This document shows, piece by piece, positions 4,063 through 55,646 of a DNA stretch of 64,000 bases. The DNA is from an uncultured archaeon (lineage in GTDB: Archaea; Asgardarchaeota; Lokiarchaeia; Sigyniarchaeales; SOKP01), in the NCBI GenBank assembly GCA_964525635.1, contig CAZGJX010000002.1, positions 6,224-70,223 on the forward strand, read 5' to 3'. How positions within the stretch are numbered: position 1 is the stretch's first letter; every line of letters begins with the position of its first letter. Under the pieces are notes generated by a model. It did not search any database and was not told the origin of the DNA. It was given only the letters and a program-made list of their open reading frames with translations. The translations under genes were made by a program, and so were the position numbers.

Positions 4063-4077
4063 TATAGAAAAAAAAAT

Positions 4078-7592: not shown

Positions 7593-7642
7593 AAATTTTA
7601 TACAAATTATTTTTTCAAATCTAAATTCTAATTAAAGGAAAA

Positions 7643-9175: not shown

Positions 9176-9201
9176 TCTCTAAATTCAACAATATTTTAAA
9201 A

Positions 9202-32523: not shown

Positions 32524-34260
32524 ATGAGTCCTTCAAATGAAGAACTATCGGTACTAAAAAGTCTGGAGACTGAAATTGGTGGAGAGATACCAGAAGCTAA
32601 TGAATTATCATCCCATTCTATTGGATATAAAGTCAAAGATAATAAAATAACAGGTTTGAGCTTATTTTCATGTGGTTTGGAAAATATGCCTAAGAAAATG
32701 GCTTTTTTAAGTCATTTAAAAAAGTTATACTTGAGAGGAAATAATATAAAATTATTTTCCGAAAAAATTTGTTCATTAGAATCTCTCAATCTATTAGATT
32801 TAAGTGAAAATAAATTAAAATTTATTCCCGATGAAATTCTGCTGTTAAAAAATTTAAAAGTATTAAATTTGGAAACAAATGAATTGAGAAACCTCCCAAG
32901 TAATATTGGAAGTCTTAATAATCTTGAATCTTTAGATTTAAGTAGTAATATTTTAAATCAGATTCCTCAATCTTTGGGAAATTTAATTAATTTAAAATTC
33001 CTCAATTTAAGCAATAATAATATAAATATTTTACCAGATTCAATTGGTTCTCTCTCATCCTTAAAATTTTTATATATAAGTAATAATAACTTAGAAATAC
33101 TTACAGAAAAAATAGGTAATCTATCAAAATTAGAGAGATTGAATATTAGAAATAATAAATTAACTAAACTACCTGAATCATTTGGATCCCTAGACGCCTT
33201 AACTTCTTGCTTTCTAAAAGGAAATAAATTAGAATCTCTTCCAAATTCTATAGGATTACTAGAAAATTTAAAATATTTAGGTTTAAATTCAAACCAATTA
33301 AAAAATCTTCCAGATTCAATCGGTAATTTATATAAACTTGAAAATTTAAGTTTAAATGATAATATTATAACACAATTACCAGATGAGATATGTAATCTCC
33401 GTTTATTAATAAGATTTGATATTCAAAATAACGAATTAACTTCTTTACCAGAAAACATTGGTACCTTAACAAATTTAAAATTTTTCTTATTAAATAAAAA
33501 TAAGATTACACAATTACCAGATTCTATAGGATTATTAAATTCTTTAGAATCTCTAGAATTAAATCAAAATAAATTAAAAACCTTACCCGGAACAATAGAG
33601 AATTTAACTTCTTTAATTGATTTAGATCTATATAGTAATAATTTAAAATTTTTACCTGATTCCTTTGAAGGAATATTAAGTCTAAATATCTTAGATTTAA
33701 GTAGTAATGATCTCGAACAATTACCAAATTCTATCTGTAAATTAAGATCTCTAAAAGAATTGGATTTATCAAATAATAAATTACAAACTATTCCCAATTG
33801 CATTGGAGGATTAACATCTTTAATGAATTTTATTTTAGGATTTAATAATCTAAGTGAAATATCTGAATCAATAGGAAATATGACTAATCTAGAAACTTTA
33901 GATTTGGGAAAAAATCATCTTAGGAAAATTCCAGATTCAATTGGTAGGTTAAATTCTTTAAAATACTTATATTTATATTACAATAATCTCGTAGAAGTTC
34001 CAGAAGAATTAAGTTCTCTTGAAAATCTAGAATATCTAAATTTAAGTAATAATGAATTAAGAATCATTCCAAAAAACATAGGGTTGCTAAAATCACTTGA
34101 ATATTTATTTTTAAATATGAATCTTTTACAAAATGTCCCAGAATCACTTATGGATCTTAATAATCTTAAACATCTAGATATAAAAAAAAATAGTATCCAA
34201 GAAATACCTGCATTTCTAAGGATTTTAGAAGAAAAAGGTGTAAAAATCATTACTGAATAA
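32524..34260 (+). CDS. leucine-rich repeat protein (about 22 x 23-aa LRRs), no signal peptide
   Basis: Near-continuous LxxLPxSIGxLxxLxxLxLxxNxL repeats from about aa 60 to 570. Confidence 0.9.
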   Translation: MSPSNEELSVLKSLETEIGGEIPEANELSSHSIGYKVKDNKITGLSLFSCGLENMPKKMAFLSHLKKLYLRGNNIKLFSEKICSLESLNLLDLSENKLKFIPDEILLLKNLKVLNLETNELRNLPSNIGSLNNLESLDLSSNILNQIPQSLGNLINLKFLNLSNNNINILPDSIGSLSSLKFLYISNNNLEILTEKIGNLSKLERLNIRNNKLTKLPESFGSLDALTSCFLKGNKLESLPNSIGLLENLKYLGLNSNQLKNLPDSIGNLYKLENLSLNDNIITQLPDEICNLRLLIRFDIQNNELTSLPENIGTLTNLKFFLLNKNKITQLPDSIGLLNSLESLELNQNKLKTLPGTIENLTSLIDLDLYSNNLKFLPDSFEGILSLNILDLSSNDLEQLPNSICKLRSLKELDLSNNKLQTIPNCIGGLTSLMNFILGFNNLSEISESIGNMTNLETLDLGKNHLRKIPDSIGRLNSLKYLYLYYNNLVEVPEELSSLENLEYLNLSNNELRIIPKNIGLLKSLEYLFLNMNLLQNVPESLMDLNNLKHLDIKKNSIQEIPAFLRILEEKGVKIITE

Positions 34261-39361: not shown

Positions 39362-40792
39362 ATGATTAAAATGAATAGAGAAAAAGAAGACTTAGTAATA
39401 ATGAAATTTGGTGGTTCATGTTTACAAGATATTGAATCTTTTTCACAAACTACTGAAATAATAAGAGATTATCTTAAAAGTTCGAAATTAATTATAGTTA
39501 CATCAGCTTTTAAAGGTATAACAGATAAACTTATTAATTTTTATAATAAGTCTTGTGGGGATGGATCAGAATGTAATGAAATCATTGATGGAATTAATAC
39601 AATTCATAAAAGATTTATTAATGAAAATATAGAAAGTGATAAAAAAGAATATAAAAAAACTATTGACTTTCTAGAAGTAAACATAAAAGATCTAATCCAA
39701 TTGGGCAGAGTTGTACGCTTATTACGACCAAGTTTGGATATTCAAGATTTAATTATATCTTATGGTGAAAAATTAAGTACTTATATTGTAAATCAATATT
39801 TAAATTCAATCAATATTAGATCTCAATTTGTCTCTTCAGATGAAATAATTATTACAGATGATAATTATAGTAATGCTCTACCAATATTAGATGAAACAGA
39901 AAAACTTGTTCAAGAAAAGATCGTTCCACTCATTAATTCTGAAAAATATGATATTATTTCAATAACTGGATTTTATGGGTCAACAAAGGATCAAAAAATT
40001 ACAACTCTTGGTAGAGGAGGTACCGATTTAACAGCTGCAATTATGGCATACAGTTTAACTAACCATTACAAATGTAAAGTGATATATTGGAAGGACGTTC
40101 AAGGTTTTTTGGATGCAGATCCTAGAATTGCTAAACAAGCCTCTCTTTTAACTCAAATATCATATATAGAAGCAAAAGAACTTGCTTTTTTTGGATCTAA
40201 AGTACTTCATCCATTATGCTTAGACGTAAATGAAAAAGGAAATATTCCATCCGAAATACGTCCTTTTAATGAACCAAATTCGAAAGATTATACTACTATT
40301 ACAAAAGAAATTATAAAGGGAGAACAAATAGTAAAAGCTATTACTTCAATCCAAAGATTAACAATGGTAACAATTGAAAGTGGTACTATGATTTCTCTTC
40401 CTGGTACTGTAGCAAAACTTTTCAATTTGTTAGCTGAAAGCAATATTAATATAAAGTTTATTTCTCAGAGTTCCTCTGAAAATAATATTACTATTGGTAT
40501 AGACTTCGAAGATTCAATGAAAGTAAGTTATTTATTGAGGAATTCTGATTGGTTTGGAAAACAATGGTTTAGTATAAAAATAGATAATGATATATCATTA
40601 ATCGCTGTTATTGGAGCAGGTATGTTACATACGCCGGGAATTGCAGGTAAAATATTTACAATACTTGGTAATAATAGAGTAAACATAAGAGCAATTTCCC
40701 AAGGATCTTCTGAATTAAATATAACTATTGTTATTGAAAGAAATGATTGTATAAAGGCTGTAAATGTGTTATACGAAGCGTTTATTAGTTAA
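39362..40792 (+). CDS. lysC: aspartate kinase
   Basis: MKFGGSCL, GRGGTDLTAA, and two C-terminal ACT domains; 476 aa. Confidence 0.9.
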   Translation: MIKMNREKEDLVIMKFGGSCLQDIESFSQTTEIIRDYLKSSKLIIVTSAFKGITDKLINFYNKSCGDGSECNEIIDGINTIHKRFINENIESDKKEYKKTIDFLEVNIKDLIQLGRVVRLLRPSLDIQDLIISYGEKLSTYIVNQYLNSINIRSQFVSSDEIIITDDNYSNALPILDETEKLVQEKIVPLINSEKYDIISITGFYGSTKDQKITTLGRGGTDLTAAIMAYSLTNHYKCKVIYWKDVQGFLDADPRIAKQASLLTQISYIEAKELAFFGSKVLHPLCLDVNEKGNIPSEIRPFNEPNSKDYTTITKEIIKGEQIVKAITSIQRLTMVTIESGTMISLPGTVAKLFNLLAESNINIKFISQSSSENNITIGIDFEDSMKVSYLLRNSDWFGKQWFSIKIDNDISLIAVIGAGMLHTPGIAGKIFTILGNNRVNIRAISQGSSELNITIVIERNDCIKAVNVLYEAFIS

Positions 40793-40860
40793 GAAAAATC
40801 TATTATTCCTCAAATAATAGTTTATTTTTAGGAATTTAGAATAATTAAAAAATAAATAAA

Positions 40861-40881
40861 AAACAGATTTTTTTTCTGTTT
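40861..40881. terminator. hairpin AAACAG-(AT8)-CTGTTT between convergent lysC and pgi
   Basis: An inverted repeat with a T-rich loop, read directly, located between two convergent stop codons. Confidence 0.35.
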
Positions 40882-40887
40882 ATCTAA

Positions 40888-42126
40888 TTATTTGAAGAAA
40901 TTTTTGAATTTGTCGTTTCCTAAATTAACACGAATTTCTTTTCTTTTTTCTAAAGGTAAATTCTTTTTTAAAGCCTCATTACATATTTTTTTTCCGATAT
41001 TTACTTTTGGATTATTAGCCCAATTCACATCCAATAATAAACATAAATAATAAACACTAGATTGTATAAAAGCGATTAAATTTCCTATTCCTTTCGCATC
41101 AGGATTATCTATAGTAATTATACCTGAAGGTATTTCTTCTTCAATTAATGCTTGAAAAGTAGCATCTGCTTGATAATCTACTACGTTTTGTCCAGACTTT
41201 CCTTCAATATATTCAATAGAGGACTTAAGTTCTAGATCAGGATACTCATTATTAACTTTATAAAGTATTGGAATTATAGCTCCTTTAGTGCCTCCTAAAA
41301 TATATTCTAAAACAGAGTGTTGACATAATGGTGCTTCTTGATATGCTCCCATCAATCCTTTATCTTCTTTTCCAGAACTCTCTGAGATTTCTTGAACCAA
41401 CAATCCTACGCTTCCTTCTAGGTTTTTAGAATATGGCATAGAAAATACAACCTTATATTCTTTTTTGTATAAATTATACAAAAATGAAGCAAATTCTGTA
41501 CTTGCATTTCTATTCAAATCCATATATATATTATAACCTTCTTTTAATCCTTGTAGAAAGCTATTAATATTAATACCAGAAAGATATGCAGGAACAATTC
41601 CAACATTAGTAATTGAACCAGCAAATCTACCAGATAAATCAGGAACTTCTAAAATAGGGGCATTGATATTCTCTAATAATTCCTTCATAGTACCTCGTGA
41701 TGAAAGACCTAGAAATTGATATCCTTTTTCTAAAAAAATCCCAATTGTAGCATTAACATCAAGAGTTTCTCCACTTCGAGAAATTGGAATAACTATAGAA
41801 TCTTCTGAATTTGTTTCTTCTAAACATTTGAGCAATTCTATTGATCTTGAACTCGTTATAGGATAAAACTTCTTTTTAGATAAATGACATATGGATAACA
41901 TTGTCTGAATTGATCCACCAGTTCCAAGTACTATAATATTCTTTATTTCATCCTTTAAAAATGGATTTGACATTTTCTTAATTTTTTCAAAATCAAGATA
42001 CGAGTCAATATCGATGAAAAAAGGAGCATCCCATTTTTCTTTATTTTTCTTTATACCTTCAATATTATCATTAAATAATTCGTCATTTATTTTTGGATAA
42101 TATTCAAAGGTTAAACCTAAATTCAC
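40888..42126 (-). CDS. pgi: glucose-6-phosphate isomerase (archaeal short PGI, SIS fold)
   Basis: VLGTGGSIQT and ISRSGETLDVNA correspond to the GxGGS and SKSGxTxE motifs. 412 aa with a GTG start. Confidence 0.7.
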   Translation of the reverse strand: MNLGLTFEYYPKINDELFNDNIEGIKKNKEKWDAPFFIDIDSYLDFEKIKKMSNPFLKDEIKNIIVLGTGGSIQTMLSICHLSKKKFYPITSSRSIELLKCLEETNSEDSIVIPISRSGETLDVNATIGIFLEKGYQFLGLSSRGTMKELLENINAPILEVPDLSGRFAGSITNVGIVPAYLSGININSFLQGLKEGYNIYMDLNRNASTEFASFLYNLYKKEYKVVFSMPYSKNLEGSVGLLVQEISESSGKEDKGLMGAYQEAPLCQHSVLEYILGGTKGAIIPILYKVNNEYPDLELKSSIEYIEGKSGQNVVDYQADATFQALIEEEIPSGIITIDNPDAKGIGNLIAFIQSSVYYLCLLLDVNWANNPKVNIGKKICNEALKKNLPLEKRKEIRVNLGNDKFKNFFK

Positions 42127-42311
42127 ATTATCACCAAATTCCGTAAATGATTTTTTTATTATAATTATGAATCTTTCTTTAAAATTTTAAATTCTAAAAA
42201 GTATAATAAATTTCGGCTCTAATTTTTTAAATAATCTTGAATGAAAAATTAAATTTGATAAGAATCATTTATTAGTTTAAATATAAAGAATAATTAATTT
42301 TAACCTTTAAA

Positions 42312-42671
42312 ATGTCTGAAGATCAATTTCAACATTTATTGCATAATATTTTTGATAATATAGAAGGAGTCAGGTCCGCAGCAATAGTCTCACAAGAAGG
42401 TCTTGTTGTCCATTCCATTTTAGAAGAAGGTATTTCTGAAATAAAATTAGCCGCAATGACTGCTACAATTCTTTCTGTTGCTGAAAAAGTTCTTCATGAA
42501 CTTAAATCAGGAATTCTTGATGTTTGTATTGTACAAGGAGATGATGGGAATTTTTGTGTCATGGAAGCAGGACCAGAATTAATAATTGCTGTATGTTTAA
42601 ATATAGATGCTCGTATGGATACTTGCTTCATAGAAATGAGAAAAGTCTCAGAACAAATTAAAAATATATAA
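42312..42671 (+). CDS. Roadblock/LC7 (MglB-like) domain protein
   Basis: 119 aa. IEGVRSAAIVSQEGLVVHS...LAAMTATILSVAEKV...GDDGNFCVMEAGPELIIAVC is the classic Roadblock pattern. Confidence 0.85.
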   Translation: MSEDQFQHLLHNIFDNIEGVRSAAIVSQEGLVVHSILEEGISEIKLAAMTATILSVAEKVLHELKSGILDVCIVQGDDGNFCVMEAGPELIIAVCLNIDARMDTCFIEMRKVSEQIKNI

Positions 42672-42842
42672 ATATTGTTTTTTTATACAAACCACCTTTT
42701 ACTTCACTTATTTATTAATGAGTTATTAACTTTAAATAATTAAAAATCTGAAAACTTGAACTCTATTCTATTTAAAATAACTTACAATCATAATATAATT
42801 AAATAAAACTATAAAAAATACACCAAATATATGTGATATCTT

Positions 42843-44078
42843 TTGGCAAAAACAATGGAAGTTAGTAATAATGGAAGTATTGAAATGGGTGAACCATATT
42901 ATTGTAAAGAGTGTGGTAGAACTCATCAGAAAGGAAAGATTTATCAAGATCATTTTAAATATGCTCAAAATCAAGAAAATATAGAAGAAAATAATGAAAT
43001 CGAAGATTATAATGAAGATATAGAGTCCGAAGATATTGATGATATTGATGATATCGATTATGATCAGGATGAAATCCTTGATGATGATATTGATGAGGAA
43101 TATGTTGAAAATGAAATAGATGAAAGGACTTTAGATGATTGTATAGATGAAGTCAAAGGACTTCCTGGAGTAGGGGATGCAACTTTAAAAAAATTAATTA
43201 AAGCAGGTTTTACAAGCCTTGAATCTATTGCATACACACCCCCTTCAATAATTCAAGAAGATAGTGGTTTAGGAGAAAAAACTACTGCTACTCTCATTAA
43301 AGCTTCTATGAAAAAATTAAACATAGGATTTAAATCAGCTCAAGATTTATGGGAACATAGAAAAAATATTACGAGAATTTCTACAGGGAGTCAGGAATTA
43401 GATAATATTTTTGCAGGAGGAATCGAAACTGGATGTGTTATTGAATTCTTTGGAGAATTTAGAACAGGAAAAACCCAAATTATGCATCAATTATGCGTAA
43501 ATGTTCAATTACCTCTAGAAAAAGGAGGTCTTGAAGGAAGAGCACTCTATATAGACACAGAAGGTACCTTTAGACCCGAAAGAATTATCCAAATGGCTGA
43601 AGCACTTGATTTAGACTATGATACAGTTTTGAAAAATATAATTTTTGGCAGAGCTTATAATTCAGATCATCAAATCCTTCTTGCTAAAGAAGCAGCAAAT
43701 ATTATAAAAGAAAAAAATATTAAGTTAATAGTTGTTGATTCTTTAATTGGTCATTTTCGAAGTGAATATATTGGAAGAGGAACACTCGCCACTCGTCAGC
43801 AAACAATAAACCAACATTTACATGATTTACTAAGATTATGTGATATTTATCCCCAATTAGCTGTTGTTGTAACAAATCAAGTTCAAGCAAAACCAGATGT
43901 ATTTTATGGTAATCCCATACAAGCTGCTGGTGGTAATGTTATTGCTCATGGTTCAACTATAAGAGTTTATTTAAGAAAAGGTAAAGGAGAGCAGAGAGTA
44001 GCAAAAATGATTGATGCTCCTCATTTACCGGAAGGAGAAGCTGTTTTCAGTATAACTGAAAATGGTATTTCAGATTAA
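42843..44078 (+). CDS. radA: DNA repair and recombination protein RadA with about 95-aa zinc-finger + acidic N-terminal extension
   Basis: Hh[26 protein letters not shown], Walker [10 protein letters not shown], Walker B LIVVDSL. N-terminal [19 protein letters not shown] followed by a D/E-rich tract. TTG 42843 is preceded by GTGAT + 5 nt; the alternative start is ATG 42855. Confidence 0.92.
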
Positions 44079-44205
44079 TAAATATCTTATTTTTAATTAT
44101 TATTTTTAAAATTCTAAATTAGTTAAAATATAGAATTTTTAATACAATTACTAGATGTTTTAGAATGGATATATAAAATTAAAAAAAATTAAAAATAAAA
44201 ATTAG

Positions 44206-47200
44206 TTATAAATTTTCAAATTTTTTAGATAAACCAATTAGTCTCTTAACTTCATCCTGCATTGAGTTGACACCTAATTTGAAGGCTTCAGATGCTTTAT
44301 TAGCAGCTTGTTTGAATTTTTCAGCAGCCATTTTATAATTCTTTTTCTTAAGTTCTTTCTGAGCCTGAGTTTCAAATTCTTTCTTACTTAGCATTGTATC
44401 ATCAATCTGGGTAAGACGTATAGCTTCTTGTAGTTCTCCAAGAGGTCTTTTTAAACCCCAATCATTAGCGATTATAGCAGCTTCCTCATAATATATAATT
44501 GCTTTTTTGTATGATAATACTTTTTTCTCTTTCCTTGCTTTAATAACGAGGATTTTAACCTGTTTTGAAGCCTCTTTGTTGGTTGTAACAACCTTCCCTG
44601 CAATTTTAGATTTTATTGGAGCCGATACAATCTCTTGCTTTTCTTGTAAACTTGCGAAATAAACTTCACGTTCTTGAGCACTCATTTGTGCCAATTGATC
44701 AATCATTGCCTGTGTTTCTTCACGAGGCAAAGTAACAAACTCACAGATCCTCTGTTCAATAAGCTGTTTTTCTTGTGGAGAAATAGCTTTACTTTCTAAA
44801 GCAGTAACGTCCCAAGGTATCAGTATTTTCTTTTCTCTTAGCTCTTTTATACCCATGAATATTTTTGAAATACCCTTCGTTGACTTTGTCATTGTCTTTT
44901 CAAGTAAGTTGGATATAAATATATAGTCTTTCCCTGTTTCTTTCGATATAGATTTAGCATTACCCAATATATCTTTTGAAGTAGTTATCCTTAAATCTTT
45001 GATAGCAGAGGAATCTAATTGAACTTGATGGGGAAGAATAATCGAGGTTTGGAAAATCTCATCTATCGAAGGGCCAGCATCTTTAAAAACATTCAACTGA
45101 CCTCTCCAGTTTGGTAAGGCAGCAGAATATCTTTGTTCAAAGAATTTAATGAATTCTCGAAGTTTACTTCTTAATAAAATAGATGCTTTTTTACTTAAGA
45201 CTAAAGAAACTCTGATATATTGACCATCAGCAAGTAGAAGCATCTTGTCTTCATAGCTTATTTCATTTAGTGCTTTTTGAGATTCTACTTCCTTTCCAAA
45301 TGATGAAACTGCTGATATAAATCCACTTATCAAATCGGGATCTATTTTTTCTGAACCATAAGATTTGAAGAATATGCAAGTACCGCTTCCCTTATATAAC
45401 ACTAAAATATGTTCTATATTTACAGCATCATCAAATACAGTCTTAACTTCGTCTAAAACACTATCTCTTCTTCTTTTCTGAGGAACTACTACTTTCTTAT
45501 AACCGACAATACCAATACTTGCCATTATTGCAGCCGCCAAGATTAATAATATATAAGGTATTAAATCTTCAAGATTTAATCCATCAGGTGGAGATTTTAC
45601 TCTTATATAAGGAACCTCATAACTTCCAGGTTCATGGTTATACGTCTCGGCGAAAGTAATTTGTATTGTCATATTTGCTGCTTGGTTGGGAATAATTATT
45701 TGAAACCAAACTACTCCATTACTATTGGTACTATTTTGAGGTATTGCTAAAGGTGTTGTTGTATTATCTTTATTTAGAAATAAGCCTGAAATACTTACTA
45801 GGGTACTTGTAAGAGGAAGCCATTGAGTACCATCATTATATTCACATAGTATTTTTAAATCAAATGAATTCCCTGCTGTCACTGAACTAGGAAATGATGT
45901 TGCATTGATTCTTACTTGATATTTTGCATAGATTGTGATATTAAAGGAAATCGAAAGTATATTATATGGCGCAAGACTAGCATTAATATCTATTCTGTAA
46001 AATCCAAGATCTAGTATAGAGGTTCCTATATTACCCGTATATTCATTTCCACTAGGATTTAATGATGAAGATAATGTATCTTCTTGTAATGATATCAAAT
46101 TAGTAGCATTAATAGTAAAAGTCACTGGTACCCCTTGAATAGCGATAAGATCGACATAATTATAACATGAAATATTTAAAGTTAATTGAAGATCACTCTC
46201 TTCAAAAAAAGTATAATTTCCAGAATCCCACAATCCTCCTTGAGTATTAACTGAAATAAAATTGATTTGGGTATCATCTCCTGCATAATAAAATTCAATA
46301 ACACTAGAGACACTCCAATTATAGTTTGGAGGATATGAGATATTTATATAGAAAGCATGCCAATCCAAGGTTAAACCAATAGTACTTATATTTAACTCGT
46401 AATCTCCATTTCCCAGTTCATAAAGCGACCAATTAAATATATCTCCGGTATACCATAAATCTTGGGTTGCATTATCAAATACTTGAATATTACTAGTTTT
46501 TAGACCTTCTATTCCTCTATCATTTAAAATATCATTGTAATAGAAAGTGACTGTTTGGTTCCATGTAGAACCTTCGGTAACTACATCATTAAATATTAAA
46601 TTTACAATTTGAGTTTGGGCGTGTATTACATTGATTGTAATGTTTATATATTGAGTTTCATTACCCTCAGAACTTATACTAAAATCGCATACATAGGGGG
46701 AACCTGAAACATCTACATCATTAGTATCTATTAAAATGGTATAATTTCCATTTCCATCATTTGACCAAGGATACACAGTAAATCCAGTGGGTATATCTTC
46801 AGATAGAATGCTAGCTGCTGTAATTGGATTACCATCTGTATCAGAATAATTGAAGGTATAGGTTGCATTTTGCCCTCTTATGATATCACCCAAGTTCGGA
46901 GTATTTGTTGGAGTTATTTGTGTAGTTATAATTTCATTAAACCAAAAGATAATAGTATCATTATTATAATTATCTTTCCATGCTTCAATTTCTATATAGT
47001 TATTTCCATAACTAAGAATTGTAGTATCAATTTCAATTTCATAAGTCCCATTATTATGATCCCACCAATTTAAAGGAGCTGGTGCATTTGATTCAATATT
47101 TCCGCCTAAAATAGGCTGATTTTGTCCAGTATCATTATAATATACAGATATATTAAAAATTTCTCCAAAAAAATATTCCAGACCTACCTGTGAATTAAGA

Positions 47201-48933
47201 ATTAAATTAGTTGTTGCGTTAATTGTTAAAACTCTTTCTTGAAATCCAATATCTGTTCCATTATTCCATAAAACTTGAGCTCGAAAATCACCATAATCTG
47301 TTGCATTTTCGCTGATATCCCAAGTAGTCATACTAAATGTTGTATCAGCACCTAAAATAGATACATCTTGTGTTTCATTATGATTCAAAATATTTCCTGC
47401 ATCATCAGGGCTATAAACTTCAAGTGTGATATTACCATTTGACATTGTTCTATCGAAGCTTACTTCAAAATCAACTGTCTCATTAAAATTAACTTCATAT
47501 GTCTCAATAGGCCCTAAAAAGATTTGAAAACTAGTCATAAGATTTTGAGATTGACTAGTTATGAACCAATTGGTACTATTCCCTGCATTAGTTATTTGAT
47601 ACTCTCTATACTCTCCTATCGCTGGACCTAATATTGTATCATCAGTAACATTAAGAATTGAATTAAAAGCTTGTTGATTACTCCAATGATGCGGTATTGT
47701 GAAATTAATCCAATAATTACCATAACCTGACTCTGAATCAAAACAATCAATATTTCCTAAGGTAATGATCCAATATACATTTGGATCTGTTTCACTACAA
47801 TTAAAATATGATGTTGCTTTTAGGTCTGAACGAGTATAATTTACTTGAATTTGGGTTACTTGACATGACACATCCCACCATTCAGCAGTTATTTCATAGG
47901 ATAATTGATTTGGTAAAATTGTATATTCTTGACTAAAAGTTACATTTCCTGATCCAGGACTAGAACCAAGTATTGGATTGTTATTAATTTCGAGCCCAAT
48001 TTGAGATGGTGTTGGTGTATTGCTCTCGGGAACCAAACCAACTCTCATTAGATAATCTATAGTATAAGAACTTCTAACAACTAAATCCCAATCTCCAGAA
48101 ATATATGTCAAACTAATTGTTTGATCTCCATCTCCAGTAATACCTCCATCTAATGTATTATACCATGCACAATCTCCTCCATAAGAGGCATCATCAAATA
48201 AACCTATAAACCATATCTTATCCATTGTCTTTGAGTTATCCAATTGAATATTTAATCCAGTAATTACATGCCATCCATCCCCAGTAGCATTTGATATATC
48301 TATAAGTTGTTGAAAATCATTGATACCCCCTCCAGGTTTATATGTTCCTAGTCCAGAATCATATGTAGCATTATATAAAACAACTCTAATTCTACCAGTC
48401 GCAAGTTGCTCTTCAATGAAAACAGATATATTATTGATATAACCATCCCCTTCTACCTCAAAAGAAGTTACTCTAGGAATTACTGTCGAAAAATCTCCAA
48501 CACTAAAATCTTGAGGATTATTCTCTTGTAGTATTAAATATTTATCAGGAGCATAAATATTATCAATATTTATCTGTGAAACTGTAGAATTAAAATTCTT
48601 TTCAAAAGGAGTATTTGTAGTAAATGTTCTTATTGCAGGATCAGATACATTTGTTATATCAAATAGAGGTGCACCAACTTCAATTTTTGATTGATGTAAG
48701 GTAGTATTTATATCTTGAGAATATCCATCATAATAACCAGAATATGCAGCTGATTTTAAAGTAAGGTCGTCCTCTATAGGTTCTATTTCATTATCATCAT
48801 CAACACTATTCATTCCACAAGGAAAGTTCAAAAAATTAGTAAATCCTACCGAAAACAAGAATGAAACAGTTAGAATCGCTAAAAGAATTATTCTATTTGT
48901 TTTTTTATTTTTAAATTGTAACATATTTATCAA
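44206..48933 (-). CDS. giant type-I surface protein: signal/anchor, about 1080-aa sequon-rich beta-rich ectodomain, one TM helix, 430-aa cytoplasmic tail with Roadblock/longin-like module and helical C-terminus
   Basis: 1575 aa. TM LIPYILLILAAAIMASIGIVGY (nt 45499-45564) is followed by KKVVVPQKRRR. The tail contains NIEHILVLYKGSGTCIFFKSYGSEKIDPDLISGFISAVSSFGKEV...MLLLADGQYIRVSLVL. My manual count gives about 42 N-x-S/T sequons before the TM and none after it. Confidence 0.8.
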   Translation of the reverse strand: MINMLQFKNKKTNRIILLAILTVSFLFSVGFTNFLNFPCGMNSVDDDNEIEPIEDDLTLKSAAYSGYYDGYSQDINTTLHQSKIEVGAPLFDITNVSDPAIRTFTTNTPFEKNFNSTVSQINIDNIYAPDKYLILQENNPQDFSVGDFSTVIPRVTSFEVEGDGYINNISVFIEEQLATGRIRVVLYNATYDSGLGTYKPGGGINDFQQLIDISNATGDGWHVITGLNIQLDNSKTMDKIWFIGLFDDASYGGDCAWYNTLDGGITGDGDQTISLTYISGDWDLVVRSSYTIDYLMRVGLVPESNTPTPSQIGLEINNNPILGSSPGSGNVTFSQEYTILPNQLSYEITAEWWDVSCQVTQIQVNYTRSDLKATSYFNCSETDPNVYWIITLGNIDCFDSESGYGNYWINFTIPHHWSNQQAFNSILNVTDDTILGPAIGEYREYQITNAGNSTNWFITSQSQNLMTSFQIFLGPIETYEVNFNETVDFEVSFDRTMSNGNITLEVYSPDDAGNILNHNETQDVSILGADTTFSMTTWDISENATDYGDFRAQVLWNNGTDIGFQERVLTINATTNLILNSQVGLEYFFGEIFNISVYYNDTGQNQPILGGNIESNAPAPLNWWDHNNGTYEIEIDTTILSYGNNYIEIEAWKDNYNNDTIIFWFNEIITTQITPTNTPNLGDIIRGQNATYTFNYSDTDGNPITAASILSEDIPTGFTVYPWSNDGNGNYTILIDTNDVDVSGSPYVCDFSISSEGNETQYINITINVIHAQTQIVNLIFNDVVTEGSTWNQTVTFYYNDILNDRGIEGLKTSNIQVFDNATQDLWYTGDIFNWSLYELGNGDYELNISTIGLTLDWHAFYINISYPPNYNWSVSSVIEFYYAGDDTQINFISVNTQGGLWDSGNYTFFEESDLQLTLNISCYNYVDLIAIQGVPVTFTINATNLISLQEDTLSSSLNPSGNEYTGNIGTSILDLGFYRIDINASLAPYNILSISFNITIYAKYQVRINATSFPSSVTAGNSFDLKILCEYNDGTQWLPLTSTLVSISGLFLNKDNTTTPLAIPQNSTNSNGVVWFQIIIPNQAANMTIQITFAETYNHEPGSYEVPYIRVKSPPDGLNLEDLIPYILLILAAAIMASIGIVGYKKVVVPQKRRRDSVLDEVKTVFDDAVNIEHILVLYKGSGTCIFFKSYGSEKIDPDLISGFISAVSSFGKEVESQKALNEISYEDKMLLLADGQYIRVSLVLSKKASILLRSKLREFIKFFEQRYSAALPNWRGQLNVFKDAGPSIDEIFQTSIILPHQVQLDSSAIKDLRITTSKDILGNAKSISKETGKDYIFISNLLEKTMTKSTKGISKIFMGIKELREKKILIPWDVTALESKAISPQEKQLIEQRICEFVTLPREETQAMIDQLAQMSAQEREVYFASLQEKQEIVSAPIKSKIAGKVVTTNKEASKQVKILVIKARKEKKVLSYKKAIIYYEEAAIIANDWGLKRPLGELQEAIRLTQIDDTMLSKKEFETQAQKELKKKNYKMAAEKFKQAANKASEAFKLGVNSMQDEVKRLIGLSKKFENL

Positions 48934-49185
48934 AATATGTATAATTTGCTTAATATATTATAACTAAAAAGTAGTTATTTTCTAAAATATATTTATTCTT
49001 TTTGTTATTTATTATTTGAGATTTTCTTAGACTTTTGTTCTAGGGATACACTTTAAAAATACGAAAAATTTAGTAATTATCTTAAAATGATCTTGAATTA
49101 TTTCAATTTTACCTAATTAATTATATAAATTTAATATATAAATTTAATTTGAAAATAGTAAGAATTATAAATTCTAACACATGTT

Positions 49186-49869
49186 TCAAGATTTTAATAT
49201 AATTCTAGCATCTACACATATAAGCTCTTTTTGATACACAAAAATAGGATTCAAATCAATTTCCTGAATGGATTTATATTGTAAAACGAATTCTGAAATT
49301 TTCATTAAAATATTAATAATTGCATCAATGTTTACTTTAGGTCTTCCTCGAAATCCTGTTAATAATGGAAATCCTTTAATCTCCGTTATCATCTCACGAC
49401 AATCATATTCGGTTACTGGAATAATTCGAAAACTAACATCATCTAAAAGTTCAACCAAAAGCCCTCCAATACCAAACATAAGGGCGGGTCCAAATTCAGG
49501 ATCAGTTGTCATACCAATGATAATTTCGGTAATCGGAGGCTCAGCCATCTTTTGTATGGATATTATCTTTTCTTTTTCAGAAGTTATATTCATAAGTTCA
49601 TTGAATGCATTTATTGCTTCTTCTTTATTCTTAATATTTAATTTAACAGCTCCCATTTCTGATTTATGGGCGATATCCTCAGTAATTAATTTCATAACAA
49701 TTGGATAACCTATTTCATTAGCAACAACAATGAGTTCTTCTTTGGTTGATACTAGTTTTTGATTAGGTATTGGGATACCTATTTCTTTTAATATCTCTTT
49801 AGAATCAAATTCATTGATAATTTCCTTTCCCGCTTGGATTTTATTCTTGAGAAACAAATTAATATCCAT
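49186..49869 (-). CDS. acdB: acetate--CoA ligase (ADP-forming) beta subunit (ATP-grasp)
   Basis: Collinear with P. furiosus ACS beta as I recall it: IGYPIVMKLITEDIAHKSEMGAVKLNIKN, GPALMFGIGGLLVELLDDVSFRI, EIDLNPIF. Confidence 0.85.
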   Translation of the reverse strand: MDINLFLKNKIQAGKEIINEFDSKEILKEIGIPIPNQKLVSTKEELIVVANEIGYPIVMKLITEDIAHKSEMGAVKLNIKNKEEAINAFNELMNITSEKEKIISIQKMAEPPITEIIIGMTTDPEFGPALMFGIGGLLVELLDDVSFRIIPVTEYDCREMITEIKGFPLLTGFRGRPKVNIDAIINILMKISEFVLQYKSIQEIDLNPIFVYQKELICVDARIILKS

Positions 49870-50010
49870 TTAAAATCATTTAATAATAAAGTAGAAGTGT
49901 TTACTAAACATTTCTGAATAGTTTATAGAATAATAACATGAATAAAAAATTAATCAAAACACTTTTAAAACCGAAATTAAATAACTCATATAAGAATTAA
50001 AATTTTCAAG

Positions 50011-51102
50011 ATGATTTTTATGGTAAGTGAAAAAGAGAAAAATATCACAATTTTAATGGAAAATTTGGTTAACTCTGGATATGATGTAGAATTTGTATTT
50101 CTCTATAATAGACAAGGGTTACTCATAGCTAAATATGAAAAAACTGAAACAGACGATAACCATAAAAATAAAGAAGATATGGAGGAAGTTTATGGAGCAA
50201 TATCTACTTTAGTAGATAATCTTTTTAATAAAATTTCAATGGAATATAAAAGTGATAATTTTGGAACAGGTTCTTTCGACACACCAGATCATCGTATAAT
50301 CTTTCTTGAAGCGGGTCCCGAAGCCGTTATGGTCTGTGTATGCAATTATCAAGCAGATCTAAATAGAGTATTTCCAATAGCATATTTAATTGTTGAAAAA
50401 ATTGCTCAATTGATTGAAGGAAGTTTTGATTTTAAAGTTAATTCCTTAGAGATTCCCCAATTAAGTATTCATAGAGACTTTGATTTATATTTAGATAAGC
50501 ATAAAACTGAAAATACTAAACCTTTACTTGATAATATATATTTAAAACACCGAATTGAAAGGGAAAAAAAAACAGATATTAATTTTAAATTAATTATATT
50601 AGGTTCAGCTTCGGTTGGGAAAACTACTTTAGTAAATAGTTTTTTAAAAAAAGAGCAGCTGTTGGATTATCGTCCAACAATAGGAATGAGTATTTCAATG
50701 CAAAAATATTATATACAAGGTTTTAAAGATGATATAATTACATTTTTAATATATGATTATGCTGGACAAGAGTTTTTCAAACGCGTTAGACATGAATATT
50801 ATAATGGAGCGAATTGTGTTTTTGTGGTGTATGATATTACCAGAAGAGAAACCTTTGATGAAAGTATCGATTTTTGGTTTAAGGATGCTAAGGAACAATT
50901 AGGTGATATACCCTTTGTAATTATTGGAAATAAGATGGATTTGTTGGATCAGCGTCAAATATCAATAGAAGAAGGAAAAAAAAAGGCAGAAGAATTAAGG
51001 AGTTTTTTTATAGAGACTTCAGCATTATATAATAAAAATGTAGTAGATACCTTCAAATTGATAGGAATAGGTCATTTCTTTAGAATTATTGATATTCTTT
51101 AA
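50011..51102 (+). CDS. Roadblock/LC7 domain fused to a Rab/Ras-like small GTPase
   Basis: aa 12-137 are Roadblock (VEFVFLYNRQGLLIAKY...IIFLEAGPEAVMVCVC). aa 191-355 are the GTPase: G1 GSASVGKT, switch I YRPTIG, G3 DYAGQE, G4 GNKMD, G5 ETSAL. There is no C-terminal Cys. Confidence 0.88.
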   Translation: MIFMVSEKEKNITILMENLVNSGYDVEFVFLYNRQGLLIAKYEKTETDDNHKNKEDMEEVYGAISTLVDNLFNKISMEYKSDNFGTGSFDTPDHRIIFLEAGPEAVMVCVCNYQADLNRVFPIAYLIVEKIAQLIEGSFDFKVNSLEIPQLSIHRDFDLYLDKHKTENTKPLLDNIYLKHRIEREKKTDINFKLIILGSASVGKTTLVNSFLKKEQLLDYRPTIGMSISMQKYYIQGFKDDIITFLIYDYAGQEFFKRVRHEYYNGANCVFVVYDITRRETFDESIDFWFKDAKEQLGDIPFVIIGNKMDLLDQRQISIEEGKKKAEELRSFFIETSALYNKNVVDTFKLIGIGHFFRIIDIL

Positions 51103-51124
51103 AATAAAATAGAATAAAACCAAA

Positions 51125-52144
51125 TCAAATTTGAAAAAATACTATTTTTATTGTTGCATAAAATGCATAAAAACTTATTAAAAGGATAGATTCCCGTGTT
51201 TTAAGAGACTTCTTCGTCCATAGAAAGTAATATGCGATTGATATTCCTATAAAAAGCATTGGTATGTCATAAAATAATAAAATCTTTACGACCTCGAATT
51301 CAGCAATAATAGCACCTGCACCTGTTGCGAAAAGAATATCACAAATGTTGGAACCTAAAATATCCCCTATAGCAATACCATATGAACCTCTTCGCATTGC
51401 AGTTAAATCAACGACAAGTTCAGGTACACTTGTTCCCAAACCAACAATTAAAATACCAATAACATTTTCAGGTACATTTAATTCTTCAGCTAAATTGTGT
51501 CCTGAAAGTATAGATATTTCAGCACCAACTAATAAGAATAATAAACCAATTAGAAAATATAATATATCTTTCCTAATTGAAGGTATTCTTAAGGAACCTT
51601 TCTTAACCTCTAGCTGGAGTGGATCTAATCCCTCTCTCTCAACTTCCTCTATTTTTGGTTCTGCTTTTCTTAATTTTTTCTCACTTATAATTATTAAAAT
51701 TAAATATATGATATATATAATAATCATTGTTAAAGCTTCGATACGAGCTATTAATCCATCAATTGCGAATAGCAAAAAAATAAAAAGAGATAAGAATAAC
51801 ATAGGTCCTTCTCTTCGTAATTCCCATTTGCTAATAAATATTGTCTGTGTTAATCCTAAGAGTCCTAATATAAACGTAATCTGAGTAAAAAATGAACCAA
51901 TTTTATTTCCAATAACTATTCCATCTACAGAGGGATCAATTCCTAAGAGTTTATCAAATCCCCCCATAATTGAGACTGTTATTTCTGGTAAGCTAGTTCC
52001 AATAGCTAAAATCGTCAAACCTACCATTAGGTAACTTATACCAAACCGTTTCGCGATACCTTCTAATCCAATTATGATATATTTAGCCCCAAAATATAAT
52101 GCAACAAATCCTGAAAGCATAAATAAAATTGGATATAACATCAT
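51125..52144 (-). CDS. Ca2+/Na+ antiporter (CaCA family, YrbG/NCX_Mj-like)
   Basis: Alpha-repeat motifs GTSLPEITVS and GLGTSVPELVVD in a 10-TM-type protein. Confidence 0.85.
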   Translation of the reverse strand: MMLYPILFMLSGFVALYFGAKYIIIGLEGIAKRFGISYLMVGLTILAIGTSLPEITVSIMGGFDKLLGIDPSVDGIVIGNKIGSFFTQITFILGLLGLTQTIFISKWELRREGPMLFLSLFIFLLFAIDGLIARIEALTMIIIYIIYLILIIISEKKLRKAEPKIEEVEREGLDPLQLEVKKGSLRIPSIRKDILYFLIGLLFLLVGAEISILSGHNLAEELNVPENVIGILIVGLGTSVPELVVDLTAMRRGSYGIAIGDILGSNICDILFATGAGAIIAEFEVVKILLFYDIPMLFIGISIAYYFLWTKKSLKTRESILLISFYAFYATIKIVFFQI

Positions 52145-52589
52145 TTATTTTAAAACACCTTGAAAATAGTTTTTATAAATCGATTTTTATTAATTTTTAT
52201 ATAAAATCTAAGTATCTCTATATTAGAACCAACACTAAATTAATTACAACTGAATTTCAAATAATTGAGTAATCTTCAAAGAAATTACAAATTAGAAATG
52301 TATACTATTTTATTCTAATAAGACTTCTTCTATCATAAAACAATATTATCGAAATTAGGATATCGTATAAACTGTCCTAGATTATAAATATCAATGAAAT
52401 TTTTCTAACTATTTTATTGTACTTTTAACTCTTGAATGGAATTGAACAAATATATTAAAAACACTTATATATATAAGTCTATCTATGATAAAGAAAAATA
52501 AAGAGGAGTATATTGCAAATTAATTGATATTTTTAAAAAACCTATTATTAAATAATTAAAAAAAAAGAAATAAAAAAGAGAGTTAAGAT

Positions 52590-55484
52590 TTACCCTTTTC
52601 TATGGAATGTACTTAAACTATTTTGAAATTTCTCGCTTTTATGCATTTTTCGCCGAGCAAGGAACTTTCTTATTTCTTCAGCAGGTAGTATCCATATTGA
52701 AGAACCGAAAAATACAGGTGTCCAGTAAAACCATCTATCAAGAGGAAGGGCATGAAAAGCCGTATTTAAACCAGGTATGAATAATACCATCAAATGTAGT
52801 GAAAATGAAAGCCCAGTTGCCCAAAATAAATGTTTATTTCGAAACTCCCAGAATGGTCGATAACTCGATGTGCAAGCAAAGACAAAGAATAATTCAAAAA
52901 ATACTACACTAGTAAAAACAATTGTTTGAACTATACCAATTTGAAAATCCTCAGCACTTATACCCATACTTGGTATACCATAGACCATACGCGAATCATA
53001 GAAAGTTGAAGTTGGATCTGTCCACATTGGAACTAAGACGGACCAAGAGACCGTATATAACATAACATCAAGGATAGCTGCAATAGCGGCTGCATATATA
53101 ATCATTTTCTTTATATCATGAATCATATTGAAGCCTTTCCGCGGTTTGAACTTCATAACATCTGGATCAGTGGGAGTTAGGCCTAAAACCATCGCGGGAA
53201 TGCCGTCGGTAGCTATATTCAACCAAAGGATTTGAATAGGTTGAAGTGGTTGGGCTAGGAATATATTAGTAGCAACCTTCATTAAAATAAATGCTACTAA
53301 TACCATTACAATCTCATCGAAATTAGCACTGAGCATATATCTAAAAAAACATTTTGTTGTTTCGAAGATTCCTCTCCCTTCTTCAATAGCGTTAACAATA
53401 GTAGAATAATCATCGTCTAATAGAATCATATCAGAAGCTTCTTGTGTTACTTCTGTCCCCTTAATCCCCATAGCGACACCTACATTTGCACCCTTTACTG
53501 CAGGAGCATCATTTACACCATCCCCTGTCATAGATACAATATATTCAAGAGATTTCAATGCCTTGAGGATTCTAAGTTTATGTTCTGATGTGACTCTAGC
53601 AAAAACATCAACCTCTTCTACTCTTTTTATAAGCTCGTCTTCAGGCATTTCTTCCATTTCAGCACCAGTAACAGCATCTTCTCTGTCTGTTAAGCCAATT
53701 TCTTTTGCTATAGCGATAGCAGTAATCATATGATCTCCAGTAATCATTATTGTTCGAATACCTGCCATTCTTGCTTCTTCAATAGAATCTTTTACTTCAT
53801 CCCGGGCAGGATCAATTATCCCTGCTAATCCAAGGTATATATAATCTTTTTCAATATCTTCCTTCTGATAATTTTCATTTAAAGGTTTATATGCTAATCC
53901 TAAAACTCTCAATGCATTAGAAGCATATTCATTATTTTTTGATAAATAAGTATCTTCAACCTCTGAAAATGGTTTAATTTCACCATTATATAACCCTTTC
54001 CCTGCATTATGCATTAAAACATCTGGAGCTCCTTTAATTAAAGAATAAAATTCTCCATTCATTCTAATAACAACAGCCATCATTTTACGATCTGAACTAA
54101 AGGGAATTTCATCAATTTTTTCTGCTTTTACGTTAAGATGCATTTTTTTTGCTAAGACTTTTAAAGATATTTCTGTTGGATCACCGATTACATCCGTTTC
54201 TATAGGATTGTTATCTTTAGGACTAACAATTGAATTATTACATAATAAACATATTTCTAGATATTTTCTTAAATAAACATCATCATCTAGTTTAACAGGA
54301 TTACCTGAACTATTGATTATTTTTCCATTCAATGTATATCCCACTCCTTCAACATCAAATTCTTTTCCCCCAAGATATACCTTCTTAACTGTCATTTCAT
54401 TTTTTGTTAAAGTTCCCGTTTTATCAGAGCAAATAATATTAACCCTTCCCAACGTCTCTACAGCTGTTAGCGTTTTCACTAAAGCATGTCTTTCTGCCAT
54501 TTTACGCATACCAATACTCATAACTACAGTTATTACAACCACAAGACCTTCTGGTACAGCAGATACTGCAAGACTTATTGCTATAGCTAAAGCTTCAACA
54601 ATATTATTAATCTCTTCATCTCCAAATTTTATACCTTCAGTGGCTATAATTATAATTAATTCAAAAAGGAAGACAAATAAACAAATAATCATTATGATTA
54701 TACCAAGTTGTTTTCCAAAACGATCTACTTCTTGTTGGAAAGGACTTTTTTCTGGTTCTTCTTCTTGAATTTTTTCAGCAATTTTTCCTACTTCTGTTTT
54801 CATTCCAGTTCTTACAACTATAGCTTCACCATTTCCACGAGTGATAATTGTATTACTATATACCATATTTTTCCTATCAGCCAACATTGTCTTCTCTTTA
54901 TATAAATTTAAATCTTTCTCAACTGGTTGAGATTCTCCAGTAAGAATGGCTTCATCAATATATAAAGAATATGCTTTATTTAAACGAGCATCAGCAGGTA
55001 TTTTATCTCCCTCATCAAGTTTTATTATATCTCCTGGAACTACTTCTCTGACATCAATTTCTCTTACTTTTCCCCCACGCTTAACCTTTGCATTGTGCGG
55101 TGCCATTTTCTTTAGACTTTCTACCGCTTTTTCTGCTTTAAATTCTTGATAAAATCCTAAAATAGCATTTAATATTAGAATAATCAATATTACTAAAGCA
55201 TCCATGAATTCAGTAGGATCTCTTCCTCTAGATAATTCATAAATACCTACTACAACTGAAACACCAATTGCAAAAAATAGAAGATATACAAGAAAATCCT
55301 TGAATTGTCCAATAAAAATTTGTAATGCAGAAACCTTCCTTGTTTGGATTAATTCATTAAAACCATATTTTTCAATGCGTACTCCTACTTCTTCTTCTGA
55401 AAGTCCTGTATCAAGGCTTGTATCTATTTCTTTCGCTACATCATTTACTTCTAATACGTGAGCACTTAATTCTTTAGATTCCAT
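52590..55484 (-). CDS. P-type ATPase, P2 (Ca2+-transporting, SERCA/PMCA-like)
   Basis: TGES, M4 VPEGL, ICSDKTGTLT, MITGDH, TGDGVNDAPA; 964 aa. Confidence 0.92.
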   Translation of the reverse strand: MESKELSAHVLEVNDVAKEIDTSLDTGLSEEEVGVRIEKYGFNELIQTRKVSALQIFIGQFKDFLVYLLFFAIGVSVVVGIYELSRGRDPTEFMDALVILIILILNAILGFYQEFKAEKAVESLKKMAPHNAKVKRGGKVREIDVREVVPGDIIKLDEGDKIPADARLNKAYSLYIDEAILTGESQPVEKDLNLYKEKTMLADRKNMVYSNTIITRGNGEAIVVRTGMKTEVGKIAEKIQEEEPEKSPFQQEVDRFGKQLGIIIMIICLFVFLFELIIIIATEGIKFGDEEINNIVEALAIAISLAVSAVPEGLVVVITVVMSIGMRKMAERHALVKTLTAVETLGRVNIICSDKTGTLTKNEMTVKKVYLGGKEFDVEGVGYTLNGKIINSSGNPVKLDDDVYLRKYLEICLLCNNSIVSPKDNNPIETDVIGDPTEISLKVLAKKMHLNVKAEKIDEIPFSSDRKMMAVVIRMNGEFYSLIKGAPDVLMHNAGKGLYNGEIKPFSEVEDTYLSKNNEYASNALRVLGLAYKPLNENYQKEDIEKDYIYLGLAGIIDPARDEVKDSIEEARMAGIRTIMITGDHMITAIAIAKEIGLTDREDAVTGAEMEEMPEDELIKRVEEVDVFARVTSEHKLRILKALKSLEYIVSMTGDGVNDAPAVKGANVGVAMGIKGTEVTQEASDMILLDDDYSTIVNAIEEGRGIFETTKCFFRYMLSANFDEIVMVLVAFILMKVATNIFLAQPLQPIQILWLNIATDGIPAMVLGLTPTDPDVMKFKPRKGFNMIHDIKKMIIYAAAIAAILDVMLYTVSWSVLVPMWTDPTSTFYDSRMVYGIPSMGISAEDFQIGIVQTIVFTSVVFFELFFVFACTSSYRPFWEFRNKHLFWATGLSFSLHLMVLFIPGLNTAFHALPLDRWFYWTPVFFGSSIWILPAEEIRKFLARRKMHKSEKFQNSLSTFHRKG

Positions 55485-55646
55485 TTTTAATTCATTATTT
55501 AGATTTTATAATAAATTCTTTTTATTTTTTTAAATAAAAAATTTAAAATTAATTAGATAAATACAATAAATTTTATTTAAATATCTATTATAAGTTAAAA
55601 AAATGTTCTAATAAAGAATAGGTTCTAAAAATAATAATTTAAGACA

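Follow-up and report, generated by a model that had tools for sequence, protein, structure and literature searches.

In a 64,000-nucleotide stretch of contig CAZGJX010000002.1 (hereafter the window), from an uncultured archaeon of the order Sigyniarchaeales (Asgardarchaeota, Lokiarchaeia), a minus-strand gene (44206–48924) encodes a type I-like surface protein of 1572 aa, whose predicted beta-sandwich ectodomain carries about twice the N-glycosylation sequons expected from its composition and whose predicted cytoplasmic tail begins with a domain modelled with a roadblock/longin fold. That the product is a glycosylated surface protein of this architecture is highly probable. The fuller reading, in which a glycosylated protein serves the surface as coat, adhesin or receptor and connects to partners in the cytoplasm, small GTPases perhaps among them, is the one we favour with moderate assurance; coupling of the tail to GTPases, taken by itself, is put forward tentatively.

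Sequons were defined as N-x-S/T with x other than proline, and expectations were obtained from composition-preserving shuffles (5000 for the ectodomain). The first-pass annotation, which had described an extreme sequon asymmetry, counted about 42 sequons by hand ahead of a single transmembrane helix and none behind it; the exact computational count gives the same values, 42 in the ectodomain (residues 34–1120; 3.9 per 100 aa) and 0 in the 426-aa tail. Shuffled ectodomains contained 19.9±3.8 sequons and none of the 5000 reached 42 (z = 5.8), so the claim that sequon density exceeds what composition predicts holds, here and across the family described below. The excess lies mainly in N-x-T (31 observed against 11.2 expected; N-x-S, 11 against 9.5), and the reverse pattern [ST]-x-N occurs 21 times, about as expected. 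The empty tail is less remarkable than was supposed. Asn was said to be common throughout, yet it makes up 10.6% of the ectodomain (Thr, 9.8%) and only 2.8% of the tail, where 1.46 sequons would be expected and a count of zero is not significant (P = 0.21). Because the tail is Asn-poor, the asymmetry reflects a roughly twofold ectodomain enrichment together with a difference in composition, not a depletion in the tail. Among aligned homologues, 15 of the 42 sequons are kept in at least 70% and three are invariant (those in VNYT, INFT and WNNGT, at ectodomain residues 329, 374 and 522), and sequon Asn residues are better conserved than other Asn residues (0.52 versus 0.32). None of the other 46 open reading frames (ORFs) of the window exceeded a z of 2.5 for sequon excess. 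Two LRR proteins among them (23749–24642 and 32524–34260, both on the plus strand; LRR_8 and LRR_14 matches with E-values down to 4e-71) are Asn-rich (15.2% and 13.8%), lack a transmembrane helix and have sequons at or below expectation; they thus act as an internal control, in which high Asn alone yields no sequon excess.

The same pattern extends to a large family. Searching 1.84 billion representatives with a tail profile retrieved 3956 matches at E ≤ 1e-3, of which 1148 reach ≤ 1e-10 and 266 reach ≤ 1e-30; the best 150 were examined, and 128 of these have a substantial N-terminal part. The pooled ectodomains of the 128 contain 5280 sequons against 2164 expected (observed-to-expected ratio, O/E, 2.44; lowest single protein, 1.64), whereas their pooled tails contain 226 against 226 expected (O/E 1.00). 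Homologues from the first search with a locatable transmembrane helix behave alike, with ectodomain O/E values of ~2.1–2.7 each and tails near expectation, and the O/E for transmembrane-free ORFs of the same genomes is 0.89. When all a-x-b residue pairs are ranked in the family ectodomains, N-x-T (2.99) heads the list and N-x-S (1.81) takes third place; values for T-x-N, S-x-N, D-x-T, Q-x-T, T-x-T and for N..T with gaps of 0, 2 or 3 residues all fall between 0.64 and 1.09, and proline is depleted at the middle position.

The archaeal oligosaccharyltransferase AglB modifies N-x-S/T solely on the outer face of the membrane. Given this topology, an enrichment confined to the outside is the footprint expected from selection for dense N-glycosylation, and we read the sequon asymmetry as probable outside-face selection for N-glycosylation sites, a pattern normal for archaeal and type I surface glycoproteins. 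The cultured relative P. syntrophicum has been shown to N-glycosylate N-X-S/T sites, with reported glycans of 801, 909 and 1212 Da, and to carry an aglB gene; AglB is reported for this organism and for other Lokiarchaeia (PMC11284389). No AglB was found among the ~43 ORFs scanned with Pfam in these 64 kb.

The ORF given in the first-pass annotation lies on the minus strand, but its start does not stand: the 1575-aa frame had been opened at 48933, an upstream in-frame TTG, and the first ATG lies at 48924, with the stop codon at 44206–44208. A 100% identical database entry (P0001) likewise has 1572 aa. G+C content in the window is 22–32%. A hydrophobicity scan of the protein returned two hydrophobic segments. 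One, at residues 10–32 (48829–48897, minus strand; Kyte-Doolittle scan), follows the basic stretch KNKKTNR, recurs in homologues and is predicted to be either a signal peptide or a signal anchor. The other, at residues ~1121–1143 (45496–45564, minus strand), is the single transmembrane helix and is followed by KKVVVPQKRRRD. Six K/R occur in the 20 residues past this helix, compared with two K/R and four D/E in the 20 residues ahead of it; by the positive-inside rule, the 1087-residue ectodomain is placed outside and the last 429 residues in the cytoplasm. The topology first proposed, a single-pass surface protein with its sequon-rich part outside, is thus supported by hydrophobicity and charge distribution alike.

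The earlier description of the tail, given in terms of helical hairpins, had missed its main and best-conserved element. An AlphaFold2 (AF2) model built from ten sequences (mean predicted local distance difference test score, pLDDT, 81.4) divides the tail into three parts, the first being a juxtamembrane domain at residues 1149–1265 (tail residues 6–122; 45130–45480, minus strand) with the order alpha-beta-beta-alpha-beta-beta-beta-alpha: helix 6–26, strands 27–34 and 39–45, helix 53–65, strands 77–81, 84–90 and 94–100, and helix 106–122, in tail numbering. Block-mean pLDDT over this stretch runs from ~50, in the loop at 67–75, to 88. In Foldseek searches of the PDB, the top 50 matches of this part are nearly all chains of longin- or roadblock-containing assemblies, among them COPI zeta/delta, AP sigma/mu, Mon1-Ccz1, Fuzzy-Inturned, LAMTOR, Sec22b, VAMP7, TRAPP and GATOR1, with probabilities mostly of 0.9–1.0 and target-normalised template-modelling scores (TM-scores) up to 0.71. 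Identity to orthologues reaches 69% in this domain, the best-conserved part of the protein, compared with 43–49% in the remaining tail. Both an N-terminal and a C-terminal helix are present, an arrangement that matches the roadblock topology described by Tran et al. (PMC10933270). We assign the domain to the roadblock/longin fold with moderate confidence, from the predicted structure. Sequence searches of the whole protein, of the tail and of family profiles against Pfam, NCBIfam and the PDB returned no significant family. Sub-threshold Pfam matches in the ten tails included GSH-S_ATP (6 of 10, best E 7e-4) and CCDC22_N (4 of 10, best E 0.013), both probably compositional; CCDC22 is a subunit of Commander, and recent work discusses prokaryotic (Asgard) homologues of that complex (PMC12962969).

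Behind this domain, an invariant TSIILPH motif directly precedes a winged-helix-like unit (helix-strand-helix-helix-strand) within a central helical region at residues 1283–1430 (44635–45078, minus strand). The tail closes with five long helices, modelled at pLDDT >90 and forming hairpins at residues 1449–1572 (44209–44580, minus strand) that resemble TPR or MIT domains weakly, as judged from the AF2 model and sub-threshold profiles. The tail-end segments once quoted as reminiscent of TPR/MIT-type hairpins are indeed present, at residues 1471–1490 and 1529–1551, within confidently modelled helices; their assignment to the TPR/MIT type is upheld only weakly, all family scores being sub-threshold. 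TPR_2 matched 5 of 10 tails below threshold (best E 0.0033), and a PDB profile search with the tail returned the designed consensus-TPR protein 7obi (CTPR-rv4) at E 0.002 and the TPR of PP5 at E 1–2. Pfam MIT scored 10 bits here (E 0.95), below its 30-bit gathering threshold, and matched 5 of 10 tails with a best E of 0.047. When the hairpins were aligned by hhalign with the N-terminal MIT of VPS4B, an approximate query sequence, 29 columns were matched at E 0.0015 with a probability of 17%; the hairpins also carry a VPS4-like 'NY..A...Y..A' motif. Further repeats lengthen this region in P0010 and P0014, and it is absent from ~40% of paralogue representatives.

On the outer side, the ectodomain (residues 34–1120, 1087 residues; 45565–48825, minus strand) is acidic, with 133 D/E against 30 K/R. 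Its AF2 model, built from 12 sequences, is essentially all-beta, with a mean pLDDT of 73.9 and a predicted TM-score (pTM) of 0.37, a value such as a flexible multi-domain chain would give. Compared with the PDB by Foldseek, the model yielded 557 matches at E ≤ 1e-3, led by titin I65-I70 (5e-19) and including contactin-2, VEGFR-1, neurofascin, DSCAM, macroglobulin-domain proteins and the S-layer structures 7ptp, 5ftx and 8opr; the main matches span E-values from 5e-19 to 2e-12. Both the model and these matches support the tandem beta-sandwich array suggested earlier, and we describe the ectodomain as about 9–10 predicted Ig/FN3/macroglobulin-like sandwiches in tandem plus a larger, less confidently modelled N-terminal head. 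With each domain estimated at roughly 4 nm, such an array would make a rod ~35–40 nm long. The boundary-like segments quoted in the first-pass annotation were located at residues 564–576, 759–774 and 992–1010, where the model shows a strand, a break of 1–2 residues and another strand, an arrangement consistent with domain junctions. At the sequence level, the ectodomain has no significant match in Pfam, NCBIfam or the PDB; the best Ig-like Pfam entry, Big_13, reached E 0.077 (13.9 bits against a 27-bit cut-off). Ectodomain blocks are 27–45% identical to orthologues. A hidden Markov model built from three repeat units of the orthologue P0003 detects one copy of an Ig-like unit of ~95 aa here, at residues 570–653 (46966–47217, minus strand), and four tandem copies in the longer orthologues P0003, P0005, P0006 and P0008; variation in copy number of this unit accounts for the length differences among orthologues.

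The roadblock-like domain, winged-helix-like unit and C-terminal hairpins form a modular cassette. A transmembrane helix lies just upstream of it in 127 of the 128 representatives. Among the top representatives, 60 have the full cassette, 21 are intermediate and 56 end at the C-terminus with the roadblock-like and winged-helix-like core only. Two metagenomic paralogues carry the cassette without a transmembrane helix. In P0226 (812 aa), a caspase domain (Peptidase_C14, E 1.5e-13) and a further, putatively roadblock-like segment precede the cassette; the pairing of a caspase with such a cassette is unusual. P0245 (457 aa) has a Cys-rich, zinc-ribbon-like N-terminus, aligns over the whole cassette (hhalign, 99%), and its C-terminus matches Pfam MIT with 25.8 bits (E 1.1e-5). 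The cassette is reused with different N-terminal domains. All named homologues of the protein belong to Promethearchaeota (Asgard), mostly Lokiarchaeia-type metagenome-assembled genomes, which by itself identifies the source as a Lokiarchaeia-type Asgard archaeon. For the wider family, breadth was judged from the names of a sample of members; all named members are Asgard (Promethearchaeota, Lokiarchaeota, Harpocratesius and bins labelled Odin-, Thor-, Hod- and Hermodarchaeota), and as far as these names show, the family is Asgard-restricted. They are annotated as 'hypothetical protein', with the exception of two 'Ig-like domain-containing protein' entries and one JGI 'TPR repeat protein'.

In the mechanism that we propose, the ectodomain would be densely N-glycosylated by AglB, and the glycoprotein would add a glycan coat to an S-layer-less Lokiarchaeial envelope, as a component of an irregular surface like that of L. 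ossiferum, perhaps serving in adhesion or ligand contact. Roadblock domains generally dimerise; the roadblock-fold domain of the tail may pair with itself or with a soluble roadblock/longin protein, and such pairing would create a platform, tethered to the membrane, on which a partner from the cytoplasm could dock, most plausibly one of the many small GTPases (or roadblock/longin proteins) of Asgard archaea. In this way the glycoprotein could link surface events or position to cytoplasmic machinery. An adhesin or receptor that doubles as a cytoplasmic scaffold, as first suggested for this protein, is a reasonable reading of its predicted architecture. Asgard archaea are rich in roadblock/longin proteins, whose dimers act as platforms for GTPases (PMC10933270). 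Cultured Lokiarchaea have no ordered S-layer (PMC9834061, PMC11284389), and L. ossiferum bears unidentified 'complex surface proteins', some of which bridge protrusions (PMC9834061).

Several observations weigh against this proposal. The roadblock assignment is drawn from a structural model, and the Foldseek E-values behind it are modest (5e-4 to 2e-2); neither the protein nor the ten tails had a Robl_LC7 or longin Pfam match at E ≤ 10, and hhalign found no similarity between the tail profile and the Robl_LC7 protein encoded nearby in the window (probability 0.1%). Among orthologous loci, a Ras-like GTPase gene lies upstream in 11 of 34 and a Robl_LC7 gene downstream in 10 of 55. On this variable linkage, an operon of the target with GTPase and roadblock genes was rejected, and gene order gives little support to a dedicated GTPase/roadblock partnership; the variability agrees with the remark of Tran et al. 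(PMC10933270) that in Asgard archaea the genes for GTPases and for their regulators do not usually share an operon. As to glycosylation, the only Asgard glycoproteome saw N-glycosylation mainly on one solute-binding protein (PMC11284389), and a general comparison with exported proteins of these genomes covers only 3 ORFs.

Inconsistent linkage to GTPase and roadblock genes is also what one would expect of a purely structural envelope protein, an S-layer substitute or glycocalyx strut whose tail merely anchors or oligomerises it, to the cytoskeleton or to itself for instance, and has no signalling or GTPase role. Such a reading gains from the Foldseek matches to archaeal and bacterial S-layer proteins (7ptp, 5ftx, 8opr), from the single-copy, syntenic and vertically inherited state of the gene in 80 species and from the dense surface proteins of Lokiarchaea that lack an ordered S-layer (PMC9834061). 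It sits poorly with the tail, which at 429 aa, and with a roadblock-fold domain conserved better than any other part of the protein, exceeds the needs of an anchor, and with the occurrence of the same cassette on soluble caspase and zinc-ribbon proteins, which points to a portable interaction or signalling module; a repeat copy number that varies between orthologues would moreover be unusual in a lattice former. We regard a purely structural role as an alternative of some weight, unlikely on present evidence. Improbable, in our estimate, is a surface receptor or cargo handled by the endosomal sorting complexes required for transport (ESCRT), in which the MIT-like hairpins would bind the MIT-interacting motifs (MIM) of ESCRT-III; the protein would thereby mark places where membrane is remodelled, for instance protrusions or vesicles, or be sorted there. 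The alignment of P0245 to the whole cassette together with its Pfam MIT match (E 1.1e-5), the sub-threshold MIT matches in 5 of 10 tails and the VPS4-like motif speak for such handling. Every MIT score, however, is under the cut-off (10 bits here and 25.8 in P0245, against 30), the alignment with the approximate VPS4B query reached only 17% over 29 columns, TPR models match the hairpins equally well and the hairpin region is missing from ~40% of paralogue representatives.

Two further explanations concern the ectodomain. The sequon asymmetry might be a by-product of composition or of beta-strand patterns, unrelated to glycosylation: the ectodomain is rich in Asn and Thr, the low Asn content of the tail explains its lack of sequons, and 30 of the 42 sequon Asn residues fall in predicted strands, compared with 54% strand overall. 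Composition-preserving shuffles nevertheless yield only 19.9 sequons, N-x-T ranks first of all pairs while the reversed, substituted and gap patterns stay at 0.64–1.09, and both T and S are enriched at +2 with proline depleted in the middle. An artefact of this kind is very improbable, being ruled out by the shuffle, reverse-motif, gap and all-pairs controls. Hardly credible is a surface-displayed protease trap of the alpha-2-macroglobulin/thioester type, an idea raised by Foldseek matches that include A2ML1, C3, C5, CD109 and bacterial alpha-2-macroglobulins and by the Pfam MG4 matches of the distant relatives P0012 and P0239. The protein itself has no bait region and no Pfam A2M, thioester-domain or MG match, and the structural matches are those of generic beta-sandwich arrays, with TM-scores of 0.1–0.2. 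Neither a thioester motif of the CGEQ type (regular expression C[GA]E[QN]) nor a PGF-CTERM-type anchor was found in the protein, and the macroglobulin reading was rejected on the absence of the thioester motif.

The favoured reading of a glycosylated surface protein with a cytoplasmic interaction cassette can be set beside several known systems. Like archaeal S-layer and surface glycoproteins (the Haloferax volcanii csg protein, 7ptp, and Sulfolobus SlaA), the protein would be outermost, acidic and built of tandem beta-sandwiches with many N-x-S/T sites; it differs in its C-proximal transmembrane helix and conserved 429-aa cytoplasmic cassette and has no sequence similarity to them, and its likeness to S-layer proteins lies in fold matches only, with no sign of a two-dimensional lattice. 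With eukaryotic Ig/FN3 type I receptors (contactin, DSCAM, VEGFR, Robo and the receptor protein tyrosine phosphatases), it shares the general plan of a signal, an N-glycosylated Ig array (the sites being predicted here), a single transmembrane helix and a cytoplasmic interaction domain. The likeness is one of fold and architecture, at 8–12% identity and with no evidence of common descent, and the tail is of roadblock fold where the eukaryotic receptors have kinases, phosphatases or peptide motifs. A bolder proposal, that this is the founding, single-copy member of an Asgard-restricted family of single-pass, eukaryote-style receptors, in which a glycosylated Ig array connects directly to the machinery of small GTPases, of ESCRT-III or of both by way of a membrane-tethered roadblock platform and an MIT-like domain, strikes us as distinctly unlikely in that full form.

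A further prokaryotic system for comparison is the Streptomyces conservon, which comprises the membrane sensor kinase CvnA, the roadblock protein CvnB, CvnC and the Ras-like GTPase CvnD, the sensor being thought to work with the roadblock protein and the GTPase. Those are separate, operon-encoded components headed by a histidine-kinase sensor, whereas here the predicted roadblock fold resides within the membrane protein itself, there is no kinase and linkage to GTPase genes is variable. The fold predicted for the tail domain is that of MglB, LAMTOR2/3, Mon1-Ccz1, the TRAPP longins, AP sigma, COPI zeta and Sec22b/VAMP7, and the tail domain would be held at the membrane as Ragulator subunits and longin SNAREs are; unlike these platforms, it is fused behind the transmembrane helix of a large glycoprotein and has no Pfam Robl_LC7 match. 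A survey of Asgard roadblock/longin proteins mentions no transmembrane forms, the word 'transmembrane' occurring 0 times in it (PMC10933270). The C-terminal region has predicted antiparallel helical hairpins, as do the MIT domains of Vps4/CdvC and TPR hairpins, together with the 'NY..A...Y..A' motif, but scores below the family thresholds and varies in hairpin number between members. Full-text literature searches found no account of an Ig-like glycoprotein ectodomain combined with a transmembrane-fused roadblock-fold cassette. Archaeal surface glycoproteins and eukaryotic type I proteins are already known to show such a sequon pattern; it is the combination of ectodomain and cassette that we did not find described.

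The family-wide sequon excess is strong computational support for selection towards dense N-glycosylation of Lokiarchaeal surface proteins, in contrast to the only Asgard glycoproteome so far, which gave one heavily glycosylated protein and no S-layer. Asgard genomes have expanded roadblock/longin proteins and small GTPases in cells without endomembranes, and a membrane-anchored, surface-exposed member would offer a concrete handle on where they act. The family is also a candidate identity for the surface densities seen by cryo-electron tomography. If the bolder receptor reading is true, it would outline a prokaryotic route from cell-surface contact to remodelling of membrane and cytoskeleton and would give a molecular identity to the 'complex surface proteins' on Lokiarchaeal protrusions.

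The orthologue is single-copy and syntenic in each of 80 species genomes (GTDB species set); there are many paralogues besides. Gene order was taken from loci L001–L086, with neighbour counts covering only the loci long enough to test. Across ~80 genomes (39362–57566 in the window), the order is P-type ATPase, GTPase (in some loci), ATP-grasp_5, target, RadA, a 411–412-aa protein and Asp kinase. Upstream, ATP-grasp_5 is present in 29 of 34 loci; downstream, RadA and the 411–412-aa protein each occur in 53 of 55 and Asp kinase in 38 of 55. The 411–412-aa product has no Pfam match and looks phosphoglucose-isomerase/SIS-like by eye, on sequence alone. Because the invariant neighbours are housekeeping genes, the synteny is taken to reflect vertical inheritance rather than function.

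Two genes near the target are candidate partners by context only. A Ras/Arf-like small GTPase (50011–51102, plus strand; Pfam Ras, E 8e-41) carries an N-terminal extension of ~190 aa that has no significant Pfam or PDB family match; the extension looks roadblock-like by eye only, and hhalign against the tail profile found no similarity. Similar GTPases of 350–360 aa lie 1–2 genes upstream of the orthologue in L002, L003 and L006. A stand-alone Roadblock/LC7 protein of 119 aa (42312–42671, plus strand; Pfam Robl_LC7, E 4.5e-12) is encoded between the genes for the 412-aa protein and RadA.

Elsewhere in the window, a cluster of glycan biosynthesis and export type (933–11785) contains four glycosyltransferases (GT1-like, GT1, membrane GT2 and GT4/GT1), an ABC-2 permease with its ATPase, a sulfotransferase and two type I phosphodiesterase/pyrophosphatase genes. 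The cluster lies 32–43 kb away from the gene for the glycoprotein and is a possible source of surface glycans, perhaps in sulfated form. A 531-aa protein (62021–63616, minus strand) carries a JAB/MPN domain at its N-terminus (E 6.5e-13) and contains 8 sequons where 4.1 are expected (z = 2.1), and a similar JAB protein is encoded at locus L001.

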